From positions 1 through 64,000 of IMG/VR virus record IMGVR_UViG_3300037852_000046: a stretch of 64,000 bases of DNA, one strand, 5' to 3'. Source of the DNA: a virus. The position numbers were made by a program, and so were the translations under genes. The notes below the pieces were generated by a model, which did not search any database, was not told where the DNA came from, and worked only from the letters and a program-made list of their open reading frames with translations. Below, piece by piece: positions 15,655 through 18,758 of this stretch (the stretch's first letter is position 1; each line of letters starts with the position of its first letter).

Positions 15655-17214
15655 ATGGCCGGACTTGGGGGACTTCCCTACTTCATTCAGTACCAGGGGC
15701 AGTTGCAGGAACAGGCAGCAGCGAAGCAGCAACAGCAGATGCAGCTTATGCAGTTCCAGCAGCAGCAGCAGGACCGCCAGCGGCAACAGGCCGCAATGGC
15801 GGCGGCCGGCAACGCACTCCCTCAACTGGTGCAACCGCCTCCGCAGGCGATGCAGCAGCCCGCGCCGCAACCTCCGGCACCCGGTCAGGCATCACAACCG
15901 ATGCAGCAGGCCGGCGGAGGCGTTCCGTTGCCCCAAGGCCCGGTTCCCGGCCAGGTGTTGCGTCCGCCATTGCTTCCGGGCGGCGCGCAGGGCGCTATGT
16001 CCCCGCAGGGCATTCCGCCTTTCCGTCCGATGCCTAGCGCGCCGCCCCCGCAACAGGCGCAACCGGCAGGGATTCCCGCGCCCCCGCAACAGGCACCGCA
16101 AGCCGCGCCACCCCAGCAAGACCAGATGGAAGGCGGCTTCTCGCTCTCGAACATCATCCAGTCGGGGCAGAAGCAAGGGCTCTCCGGTTCGGATCTGTAC
16201 GACTACGTGCAGACCATGGAACCGTACATGACCGCGCAGCAAAAGGCGAAAGCGGAGCAATTCAAGACACAACTCGAACTGAAGAAGCTCGATGCGGAAA
16301 TTGCTTTGCATACGCAGGCTGCTCAAAACCAGAACCTGTCTTTTCAGGAACGCGAGCGACACGATCGGGCGCTTGAGGATCTGGCATCGCGCCGTATCGG
16401 TATCGCGCAGGGCAATCTGAACATCCGGATTCAGGCAGCAGGAGGCGGAGCGGGGTCCGCCCCTGTGGCCGACCTGACACCGGACACGCAGGGTAATTTG
16501 CCTGCCCCGAAAGCGGTCGGCGGCTATTCGAGTGAAGCAATCAAGGCCTTGGGTGAAGACTTCGCGCAGCGGGGTTCCGCTGCATTCACAGGTATGGGGC
16601 GCGGGAAGAGCGAGGCAGCGGTACGCGCCGAGGCGATCAACTACGGCACTGCGGTAAATGCGCAGAAGGGCGGGAACGTTGCAACCAACCGCATCCAGTA
16701 CGCGGCGGATACGGCCGGCGCACGCTCGAACGCGGTACAAGCCGCCAAGGTGGACGCGGCGGCGAACGCGCTTGTGCAGAAGGGCGGGATTGGCGACCAG
16801 TTGCAGGAGGCGACGGACGCATTGGAGCGAACAGGAATTCCAGTCGCCAATCAGGTGCAGATGGAAGCGCTCCGGCGTACGTTCGATCCGCGCGTCGCGG
16901 CTTACGACGCGGCACAAAATGGCGTGGTATCGGAAGCCGCGCAGATCCTCGGACGCGGCACGCTTACCGTGAACTCGATGGAAGAAGCGCGGCGCGTAGT
17001 AAGCCAGTGGCATACTTCCGAACAGACGCGGGCAGGCCTTGCGCAGCTTAAACGTGAAGCCGCGACCACGGTTAGGGCGTCTTCGGAAGAGGTAGCGAAG
17101 TCCGCGCGCACGCCGAAAGGTCAACCGGGTGTACAGGCAGGCAATGCGCCTGAAACAAAGACGATCGGCAACAAGACATATGTAAAACACGGTTCTGACT
17201 GGTACGAGCAATGA
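15655..17214 (+). CDS. Ejection protein 2 (gp20-like position)
   Basis: Q/P-rich N-half and helical C-half; variable C-terminal tail. Confidence 0.65.
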   Translation: [519 protein letters not shown]

Positions 17215-18758
17215 AACTGGTAACCGATCCGGCGCTCCTGGCGCAATTGAATGGCGGTGGCGGTGACTCCTCATCCGGAGGGAAAGTCACTGATCCGGCT
17301 TTGCTCGCGCAACTTAACAACCCGGCAACCGGTCTGGAGAAACTTCCGCCGGCCGCTGGCGCTCCGCAGAATCCTGTGTACGTCGCGCCGCCCTCTGAAA
17401 GCATCGGGCAGCGCATCAAAGGCAGTGCGGAGGCTGGAGCGGCGTTGGCAACGGGTGCGCTCGGCGGCGCTGCCGGCCAGTTGTATGGGCTCGGCAAGAC
17501 ACTTACCGGCGGCAAGTACGGCACGCCGCAGGGCGCGGCGGAAGGCGAGGCAGCGGGCGTCAATCTCGCGAACAAGCTTACCTACCAGCCGCGTACGCAA
17601 ACCGGACAGGCGATCACGCAGGGCGTTGGTAAGGCGCTTTCCCCTTTGCAGGCGCTGCCGGCGGACGCCGGTTTACTCGGTCGGATTGGTGAAGTACCGC
17701 GCGGTGTACTGGCGGGCGAAGAGGCAGCCGGCGCGGCGGGGCGCGTGGTCGGCAAAGGCGCAGCAACCGCTGCCGCGAAGGCGTTACCCGCCATAGATGA
17801 GGAAACCCGACAACTCGCGCAGCAGGCTCATCAGATGGGTTTTCGCCTGACTCCGGAACAGGTGGTAGGCGGCAAGTACAGCAAGATTGCTGGCGAAAGC
17901 CTGGCCTCTGTTCCGCTATCGGGCAGCAATGCGGAATTCAATAAAGGCGTATTCCTTCGCAACCTGTCAGAGCAGGCAGGCATAGAAGGCGGAAAGCCGA
18001 CGCGTAAAGCCTTCGGGCAGGCGACGAAAAAAGTGGGCAAGGAGATTGGAGCGCTTAATCAGAAGTACGATGTACCTATCGACCGTTCTGCAACGCAGGC
18101 TTTTAAGTCGAACGCTAACGGTCAGTTGCCGGAAGTGCAGAGCGTCGTCAACTACTACTCTGATCTGATCTCGAAGAGTGCCAAGGGCGGCGTGCTTCCG
18201 GGCAGCACTTTCCGGAAGATCAATACGAAACTTAACACTCAGATCAAGCAGACTTCGAATGGTGATCTGAAGTACGCACTTAGCAATTTGCAGGACGATC
18301 TTCTGGAGCTTCAGCAAAAGCAGATGAGCCCTGAAGATAACGCGCGCCTCAACACTTTGCGACGGCAATATGCGATACAGCGCACGATAGAGCCGCTTGC
18401 AGCGAAGAGTCCTACAGGCGACATCCCGCCGTCGGCGCTACTCGGGGCGCTTACTGCCACAAAGACGGGGAAGTCTTTCGTCGCGCGTAACGCGGCCGGC
18501 GATCTCGGCAATCTGGCGGACATCGGCGCACGCTTTTTGAAAGAGCCGAAGTCTTCGGGAACCGCAGAACGCCGATTGCTGCAAGGTATCCCTCCTGCAC
18601 TTGCCAGTGCGGCCGGCGCGGGTGCGGGCGTCGCCGGAGGGGCTGGCGCTCTTCCTGCCATTTTGGGGGGCGTGGGCGCTACGTACGGCGCGGCTAATCT
18701 GTACAATCGCGCAGGGCCGGCTATAACACGTGCATTGATCGACAGACCGCCTCAATGA
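17211..18758 (+). CDS. Ejection protein 3 (gp16-like position)
   Basis: Ala/Gly-rich helical protein; N-terminal VTDPALLAQLN twice; SSGTAER motif near the C-terminus. Confidence 0.65.
   Translation: MKLVTDPALLAQLNGGGGDSSSGGKVTDPALLAQLNNPATGLEKLPPAAGAPQNPVYVAPPSESIGQRIKGSAEAGAALATGALGGAAGQLYGLGKTLTGGKYGTPQGAAEGEAAGVNLANKLTYQPRTQTGQAITQGVGKALSPLQALPADAGLLGRIGEVPRGVLAGEEAAGAAGRVVGKGAATAAAKALPAIDEETRQLAQQAHQMGFRLTPEQVVGGKYSKIAGESLASVPLSGSNAEFNKGVFLRNLSEQAGIEGGKPTRKAFGQATKKVGKEIGALNQKYDVPIDRSATQAFKSNANGQLPEVQSVVNYYSDLISKSAKGGVLPGSTFRKINTKLNTQIKQTSNGDLKYALSNLQDDLLELQQKQMSPEDNARLNTLRRQYAIQRTIEPLAAKSPTGDIPPSALLGALTATKTGKSFVARNAAGDLGNLADIGARFLKEPKSSGTAERRLLQGIPPALASAAGAGAGVAGGAGALPAILGGVGATYGAANLYNRAGPAITRALIDRPPQ

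Follow-up and report, generated by a model that had tools for sequence, protein, structure and literature searches.

Matched tail and N-terminal motif types at a gene junction of short-tailed phages suggest a swappable docking cassette between putative ejection proteins

Introduction

Short-tailed phages depend on their ejection (internal virion) proteins, about which little is understood and which, being so divergent, are usually annotated as hypothetical. In polyketide synthases and nonribosomal peptide synthetases (PKS/NRPS), an element at the C-terminus of the upstream protein is the partner of one at the N-terminus of the downstream protein, with some beta-hairpin docking domains binding a short linear motif; such elements are small and tethered, fall into several compatibility classes and are often encoded by adjacent genes. 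In phage T7, the NH2-terminal "molecular tape" of gp16 stabilises the COOH-termini of gp15 in an ejectosome in which gp15 is present as eight subunits and gp16 as four visible ones (PMC8954989). Hybrids of P22 and Sf6 are non-infectious when their gp20 and gp16 do not match, and P22 gp20, an intragenic mosaic, has 33 C-terminal amino acids that are essential (PMC10883804). Here we describe the junction between the second and third of three consecutive putative ejection-protein genes (genes 1–3) of IMG/VR virus record IMGVR_UViG_3300037852_000046, the first 64 kb of which (64,000 nucleotides, nt) constitutes the window that was analysed.

The window contains two versions of this junction, in which the C-terminal tail of the gene-2 protein and the N-terminal motif of the gene-3 protein differ together. 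We propose that tail and motif very probably form a docking pair, cognate and tethered, that connects consecutive ejection proteins and is maintained by selection as a cassette. The proposal is based on the sequences and their boundaries, the strict co-occurrence of types, protein-level selection, predicted mini-folds and tethers, and charge covariation. No earlier description of docking cassettes across a gene boundary was found in the searchable literature.

Results

Switch point in gene 2 of two related genomes

The 79,073-nt record carries an exact 71-nt terminal repeat and is scored in IMG/VR as complete, with direct terminal repeats. It comprises two collinear genomes, copies A and B (approximately 38.9 and 40.1 kb), arranged head to tail and 76–92% identical at the DNA level. 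The best reading of these copies is that they represent two related phages, which may have been co-assembled, rather than a duplication within one genome, and the comparison of A with B is therefore a natural two-phage comparison. Either two strains were assembled together as one circle, or the head-to-tail arrangement is real, as a hetero-dimer or a pair of tandem prophages.

The gene-2 proteins of the two copies are 72% identical up to a switch point and diverge completely after it, and the gene-3 proteins show no similarity by BLASTP. The sequence-only reading had placed the switch at 17142 in copy A and 57130 in copy B. Translations bore this out, and both DNA alignment and BLASTN of the whole record against itself located the end of DNA homology at exactly these positions. 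BLASTN homology resumes at 20279/61243, with the intervening ATP-grasp gene being approximately 72% alike. At both gene 2/gene 3 junctions the stop and start codons overlap as ATGA.

The tails and the duplicated N-terminal motifs also read in translation as had been claimed (Table 1). Gene 3 of copy A begins MKL-VTDPALLAQLN-GGGGDSSSGGK-VTDPALLAQLN, and that of copy B begins MM-PWEKY-AAQAAPEGAPAIP-PWEKY. The right edge of the copy A cassette, which belongs to the type designated C1, would lie at approximately 17330, before GLEKLPP, as deduced from relatives that join the same motif to other gene-3 bodies. The pairings at the two junctions are not due to chance, as hundreds of other phage contigs show them as well. 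The idea that the last 23–28 residues of gene 2 travel with gene 3 held in part: they move with the first 35–45 residues of the gene-3 protein, and not with its body, which is freely reshuffled.

The end of the copy B tail (57197–57214), of type C2, was also found to carry a WE[KR] motif (SWERVQ / NWEKM) similar to PWEKY. Given its resemblance to both PWEKY copies, three similar motifs follow one another across the gene boundary.

Tail and motif types are matched throughout the phage family

We assembled 123 junctions from IMG/VR, metagenomes and genomes, 83 of which are non-identical. Tail type and N-terminal motif type were concordant in 76 of 76 non-identical junctions, which fall into six classes (C1–C4, C6 and C7; Table 1). 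The chance of such a result under random pairing is approximately 10^-39, relatedness being ignored. A further tail type, type 5 (..[VI]VNWxDLK), occurs on several body types (P0021, P0036, P0040, P0041, P0043, P0046 and others), and the gene-3 partner of this seventh tail type was not found among the sequences recovered.

Each of C1 to C4 is joined both to gene-3 bodies of approximately 500–540 amino acids (..LDRLPP..) and to bodies of approximately 650–730 amino acids (..PPQSMxGFVGGN..), with C4 being joined in addition to bodies containing an SLT domain. At least 20 changes of cassette type were counted on the tree of gene-2 bodies. The tree of short gene-3 bodies contained 15 changes; because the shuffled expectation is 15.5, the cassette is unlinked from the gene-3 body. 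C4 tails ending ..RKR were accompanied by PWDxD[PE][IV] in 8/8 cases, a pairing that we did not count as independent, given that all eight belong to one broad body cluster and may represent a single lineage.

The same pairs occur in unrelated phages

IMG/VR was scanned with degenerate DNA patterns of the tail motif alone (GYRFKGGDP, FIAPDG and KTYV..WYEQ). GYRFKGGDP was C-terminal in proteins of at least 119 IMG/VR stretches. For 101 of the 103 non-redundant tails with a usable downstream open reading frame (ORF), PWxx[YF] was present within 60 residues, with at least two copies of the motif downstream of 96 tails; the two exceptions are the variants PWEEDW and PWEENL, and a C4-type motif followed none of the 103. 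FIAPDG tails were followed by a strict W..AP-type motif (WxxAP) in 57/62 cases and by variants in the remaining five, with PWxx[YF] being found after 0/62. Two [VI][TV]Dxx[IL]LxQL[NE] motifs came next in all 11 resolved cases of KTYV..WYEQ, which represent about six body contexts. The GYRFKGGDP and FIAPDG sets together cover 32 BLAST clusters of upstream bodies and 15 of downstream bodies, with downstream proteins of up to 2,500 amino acids, and the downstream start codon lies at an offset of −4 to 0 from the upstream stop codon in 152 of 165 junctions. Covariation of gene-2 C-termini with gene-3 N-termini had been put forward as the check on the sequence-only reading; we saw no independent assortment of the two, either within the family (76/76) or in the tail-only scans (98–100%).

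The protein headed by PWxxY repeats is very large (1,470–2,500 amino acids) in L150, L159, L173, L174 and L184, and the putative docking motif therefore also heads giant proteins of the internal-virion type.

Among named phages, C2 was detected in EBPR podovirus 2, of which gp28 ("peptidoglycan hydrolase") ends in the C2 tail and gp29 starts MADGPWTKYQKAAPAAPWAKYG, as well as in Pseudomonas F116-like phages and a Bradyrhizobium phage. A reverse search with the C3 N-terminal domain matched gene starts, from the first codons on, in a Thiohalocapsa phage and a freshwater podovirus. In the former, the protein encoded upstream, annotated as "internal virion protein with endolysin domain", ends LPPGWSVEVSP, a cognate tail of the GW[ST]V type; in the latter, the domain heads a "DNA injection protein" and the upstream protein ends GEWTVKEKK, a tail of the cognate type.

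In Pseudomonas phage F116 (NC_006552.1; L336 5081–5200, approximately 47,893–48,010 of the record), the frame VMADTSKPWEEF..KPWEEFGGETKRREEA-stop that follows the stop codon of F116p58 contains the cognate duplicated motif and ends after approximately 38 codons. The long ORF continues in another frame as F116p59 ("methyltransferase"), with a GTG start 58 nt upstream. The record probably contains a one-base error, or there is a frameshift, and the annotated start of F116p59 is probably wrong.

Charges are compensated between the two halves of C2

In C2 pairs, the three tail residues that precede GYRF had a net charge inversely related to that of residue 4 of PWxx[YF], with a Spearman rho of −0.80 for 96 distinct pairs and of −0.92 over the means of 64 upstream-body clusters. 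Acidic tails (VED, VES, IEG and the like) were found with PWxKY or PWxRY (K/R 73, other 15, D/E 2), basic tails (VRK, VMK, IVK and the like) with PWxDF or PWxEY (D/E 39, other 1, K/R 0), and neutral tails with Q, L or A at residue 4 (other 19, K/R 2, D/E 1). The correlation is not a composition effect, given that the neighbouring motif residue showed no dependence on tail charge. The C2 pair of the window fits the rule, with VES before GYRF and two copies of PWEKY. These compensating charges indicate a putative direct contact of the two halves.

Selection and predicted structure

The ratio of nonsynonymous to synonymous polymorphism (pN/pS) within types was 0.00–0.29 at a pS of 0.5–1.1 for both halves, and the values for the flanking linkers, approximately 0.73–0.87, are inflated by non-homology. 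Judged from these ratios, both halves are under purifying selection on the protein. An RNA element and a neutral linker were considered as candidates and rejected, given the low pN/pS of both halves with saturated synonymous change.

The gene-2 protein of copy A is laid out as an N-terminal helix, a Pro/Gln-rich disordered tract, a helical body, a disordered linker and a C-terminal mini-domain. Its AlphaFold2 model showed helices at residues 166–487, a linker at 488–499 with a predicted local distance difference test score (pLDDT) below 50, and three strands at 503–520 with a pLDDT of 81–86. The C3 N-terminal element (N3) was predicted by AlphaFold2 as a confident beta-beta-alpha fold (residues 3–37, pLDDT of approximately 80), followed by a long low-confidence stretch. 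Every type consists of a hairpin-type mini-domain on one side and short linear motifs on the other, with the polarity of C3 being reversed (peptide on gene 2, domain on gene 3). Prediction of a complex of two copies of P0001 485–521 with P0003 1–40, performed with alignments, gave 0.25/0.23 relative to a mark of 0.32 and speaks neither for nor against binding.

The cassette is a swappable unit of approximately 180 nt

Judging from pairs of close relatives, a block of approximately 180 nt that spans the overlapping stop and start codons is exchanged as a whole and moves independently of the protein body on either side. L063 (C3) and L064 (C2) are 96.8% identical over 6.4 kb upstream and 92% identical downstream of the cassette and differ by a 180-nt non-homologous block, which extends from −48 to +131 relative to the end of the gene-2 stop codon. 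The provirus G619 (C3) is collinear with G621 and G622 (C2), with 95–96% identity over a late region of approximately 23 kb; collinearity in this region is interrupted only by the 184-nt cassette and by an unrelated indel of 247 nt, and no third virion gene that covaries with the cassette was seen in it. The early regions of G619 and G621/G622 are mosaic, as equally are those of the two C2 phages relative to each other. Both C2 and C3 occur in Paraburkholderia genomes, and C2 also in one Burkholderia genome.

The insertion of approximately 247 nt in G619 relative to G621/G622 (G619:C1:35914–36162; L131) is located approximately 3 kb downstream of the cassette.

Identity and surroundings of genes 1–3

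Each genome contains a portal-like gene, a major capsid gene, a GH19 endolysin gene and an Asp/Asn-hydroxylase-like gene, followed by three genes without a family and a PurD-like ATP-grasp gene, with genes 1–3 being consecutive and located after the capsid and lysis genes. This arrangement is of the T7 type: three consecutive late genes, the last of which has an N-terminal lytic transglycosylase in relatives. A Pfam SLT domain immediately follows the N-terminal motif of gene 3 in the relatives L120, L125 and L067; the two gene-3 alleles of the window are without it. The fold of the gene-3 body of copy A resembles those of uncultured-phage proteins, some of which have lytic-transglycosylase (LT_GEWL) or peptidase (M15B) domains. 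In GenBank relatives that share these cassettes, the labels given by other annotators are "internal virion protein with endolysin domain", "DNA injection protein" and "peptidoglycan hydrolase". On the basis of gene order, these labels, the SLT domain found in relatives and the lytic domains of fold relatives, we infer that genes 1–3 encode ejection proteins.

No Pfam or PHROG family was found for genes 1–3 of either copy, and sequence searches of PDB with two profiles (A2 and A4) and with the C2 tail gave no match. A Foldseek search of PDB with the gene-2 model yielded no match at E ≤ 0.001, the best E value being 0.46 and that of a cyanophage A4 pre-ejectosome chain only 1.5, in what is a weak test given the predicted template modelling score (pTM) of 0.36. 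Neither full-length gene 2, by tblastn, nor the C4 tail matched GenBank phages. The 160 homologues of gene 2 include many in Burkholderia and Paraburkholderia prophages and others on contigs of 38–40 kb, and species-representative genomes contained only a few prophage copies.

The gene 1/gene 2 junction (15560–15700; 55580–55710) is of a single type, unlike the gene 2/gene 3 junction. The gene-1 C-terminus, GSFSGGDFSGAFxSSPYYSGGGNSYGFT, is of one type only and is kept in all relatives, as is the gene-2 N-terminus, MAGLxGLPYF[IL]QY, regardless of cassette type; these two ends may dock as a fixed pair. Both gene-3 bodies of the window, although unrelated, terminate in ..PPQ (18747–18758; 59161–59172) and short-body relatives in ..RPPxP, a possible common C-terminal signal of gene 3. 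In both copies, the three ejection-type genes are flanked by an Asp/Asn beta-hydroxylase-like cupin gene and the ATP-grasp gene (Table 1), the products of which may serve post-translational modification of virion proteins.

Table 1. Positions of genes and cassette halves in the window, and motif pairs of the cassette types.
Feature	Position	Strand	Description
C1 upstream half	17143..17211	+	23-amino acid gene-2 tail; predicted three-stranded beta-meander on flexible tether
C1 downstream half	17220..17318	+	VTDPALLAQLN twice (17220-17252, 17286-17318), Gly/Ser linker between
C2 upstream half	57131..57214	+	28-amino acid gene-2 tail
C2 downstream half	57220..57288	+	PWEKY at 57220-57234 and 57274-57288
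Type C1			Tail ..TK[TV]IGxKTYVxxxGxWYEQ, then VTDPxLLxQLN twice
Type C2			GYRFKGGDP-type tail, then PWEKY..PW[ED]KY
Type C3			Tail ..PxGW[ST]VxEH, then MPTFTFTSPxGKxYDVxGPxGATKEQAFxILQQ
Type C4			Tail ..SSDADYxxLPSGxxFIAPDGxxRRKP, then GWQDAP..AAWExAP
Type C6			Tail ..AYVSPDGKQ[FY]xxVQ, then FDL[SG]SAVP twice
Type C7			Tail ..DFSHLWN, then MAKPWSAVAAS..
Gene 1, copy A	14654..15652	+	332 amino acids; first of three consecutive putative internal virion/ejection genes; from ORF list
Gene 2, copy A	15655..17214	+	From translation; listed ORF begins at TTG 15649
Gene 2, copy B	55670..57217	+	515 amino acids; from translation and alignment to copy A
Gene 3, copy A	17211..18758	+	"Short" body, 515 amino acids; start overlaps gene-2 stop (ATGA)
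Gene 3, copy B	57214..59172	+	"Long" body, 652 amino acids from ATG 57214 (true start); ATGA overlap with gene-2 stop
Cupin gene, copy A	13808-14371		Asp/Asn beta-hydroxylase-like; Pfam PF05118, E 8e-16
Cupin gene, copy B	53773-54336		Asp/Asn beta-hydroxylase-like
ATP-grasp gene, copy A	18938-20281		PurD-like; GARS_A, E 1.6e-9
ATP-grasp gene, copy B	59381-60727		PurD-like

Discussion

The sequence-only reading had regarded the mini-domain and the duplicated peptide as cognate partners. Our results uphold this with regard to the co-occurrence of types and the charge compensation in C2, and suggest the following mechanism, of which physical binding, stoichiometry, timing and orthogonality are the parts that we infer. 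The C-terminal 15–30 residues of the gene-2 protein and the N-terminal 35–45 residues of the next protein would act as cognate docking elements, one being a beta-hairpin, beta-meander or beta-beta-alpha mini-domain and the other one, or usually two, short linear motifs, each tethered by a disordered Gly/Pro/Ala-rich linker. Encoded by a block of approximately 180 nt over the stop/start overlap, both elements would be made side by side from one mRNA. Their binding would join the two proteins, probably with two upstream tails per downstream protein, during virion assembly or formation of the ejection conduit. Because the halves must match, the pair would stay together during the recombination that reshuffles the bodies, with the outcome being discrete, interchangeable types: at least six paired classes and a seventh tail type.

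Several points weigh against this proposal. Binding of the two halves is deduced rather than observed, and no confident model of the complex was obtained. Genes 1–3 have no homology to characterised ejection proteins that was detectable with Pfam, PHROG, PDB or Foldseek. Co-inheritance is also partly expected from linkage, given that the halves are adjacent and without homology between types, so that homologous recombination rarely separates them. Finally, the sequences share descent and counts overstate the number of independent events, an effect that body clustering reduces and does not remove.

We considered three other explanations, each of which is less likely than docking. The first is that the two halves form a bipartite signal, both binding one type-specific third component, such as the portal, the core, a scaffold or a host envelope factor, rather than each other. 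Ejection proteins must also touch portal or core and host envelope components, and mutual binding of the halves is itself a reading of sequences. However, G619 and G621/G622 differ in cassette type with no other replaced segment in their late region, C2 and C3 both occur in Paraburkholderia genomes with C2 being found also in Burkholderia, and the charge compensation runs between the two halves. We therefore regard a shared third partner as improbable.

Linkage alone, which we consider marginally more improbable still, would mean that functionally independent halves are co-inherited because they are contiguous and non-homologous between types, with crossovers occurring in conserved flanks. The block is indeed only approximately 180 nt long, recent swaps are flanked by homology on both sides, and homologous recombination would rarely cut inside it. 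The outer joints of the cassette have nevertheless been remade often, across dozens of unrelated families, whereas the inner joint has remained intact, with 0 wrong-type pairs in approximately 250 junctions, and linkage does not predict covariation of opposite charges between specific positions. The third possibility, that superinfection-exclusion or defence proteins act on the cassette as a hypervariable target, with its types kept by frequency-dependent selection rather than by a requirement for matching halves, recalls the SieA escape mutations in the C-terminal regions of P22 gp20 and gp16 (PMC10883804) and suits temperate phages that would encounter related prophages, but it is the least probable of the three, given that it could explain the coexistence of types and leaves strict pairing, strong within-type conservation and charge compensation unexplained, and it is compatible with docking as an added driver.

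The pairs provide a simple sequence signature of ejection-gene junctions in hundreds of unrelated phage genomes, and the motifs would be a general marker for ejection genes that are otherwise unrecognisable. They predict a specific two-protein contact, down to one charge pair, and the cassettes explain why mosaic boundaries in this region lie inside genes rather than between them. The motifs also point to the gene start in the F116 record as likely wrong and could expose further such cases. Should binding prove true, the pairs would be natural, very small and probably orthogonal docking modules or heterodimerisation tags. A broader generalisation, to which we would give a little less than an even chance, is that a combinatorial "docking code" is common to short-tailed phages, in which hairpin/peptide pairs of 20–40 amino acids, at least six or seven in number, mutually orthogonal and placed across the stop/start overlap, set the compatibility of ejection alleles and a 2:1 stoichiometry. 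On this view, the pairs may assemble co-translationally, in keeping with the short start offsets, and in some types one beta-beta-alpha mini-domain may be divided between two proteins, for which the cis form MPTFTFTSPDGKTYDV..EQAFAILQQRLG can be compared with a tail ..GKTYVQQNGKWYEQ followed by the N-terminus ..VTDPALLAQLN.

Comparison with known systems

As in T7, the genes are consecutive and the C-terminal part of the middle ejection protein would be contacted by the N-terminal part of a larger protein that follows it and often has a lytic transglycosylase; the 2:1 ratio in T7 also fits the duplicated N-terminal motifs found here. Unlike the T7 proteins, for which no such description exists, the elements of the present pairs are terminal, 15–45 amino acids long, tethered by disordered segments, of multiple types and swapped as cassettes. 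No sequence or fold similarity to the T7 system was detected, the fold test being weak at the low pTM of the model. Gene size and order are similar to those of P22, in which gp7, gp20 and gp16 comprise 229, 471 and 609 amino acids, respectively, whereas no homology was found, the matching determinants of P22 have not been mapped to a tail/N-terminus pair, and searchable papers contain no report of a cross-boundary cassette in P22-like phages. A precedent for the present pairs thus exists in T7 and P22 in function, not in form.

The position of the elements and the type-specific co-occurrence resemble PKS/NRPS docking, and the charge compensation points to a putative contact of the elements. 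The proteins and the biology are unrelated, the mini-domain here may be on either side, and the peptide is usually duplicated. No Pfam docking-domain family matched the gene-2 and gene-3 alleles of the two copies, and the likeness is one of functional analogy. Cohesin and dockerin modules, at 60–150 amino acids, are much larger than the present elements, depend on calcium, act outside the cell and are not encoded on both sides of a gene boundary, but they share with them discrete compatibility types and the arrangement of small modules on flexible linkers.

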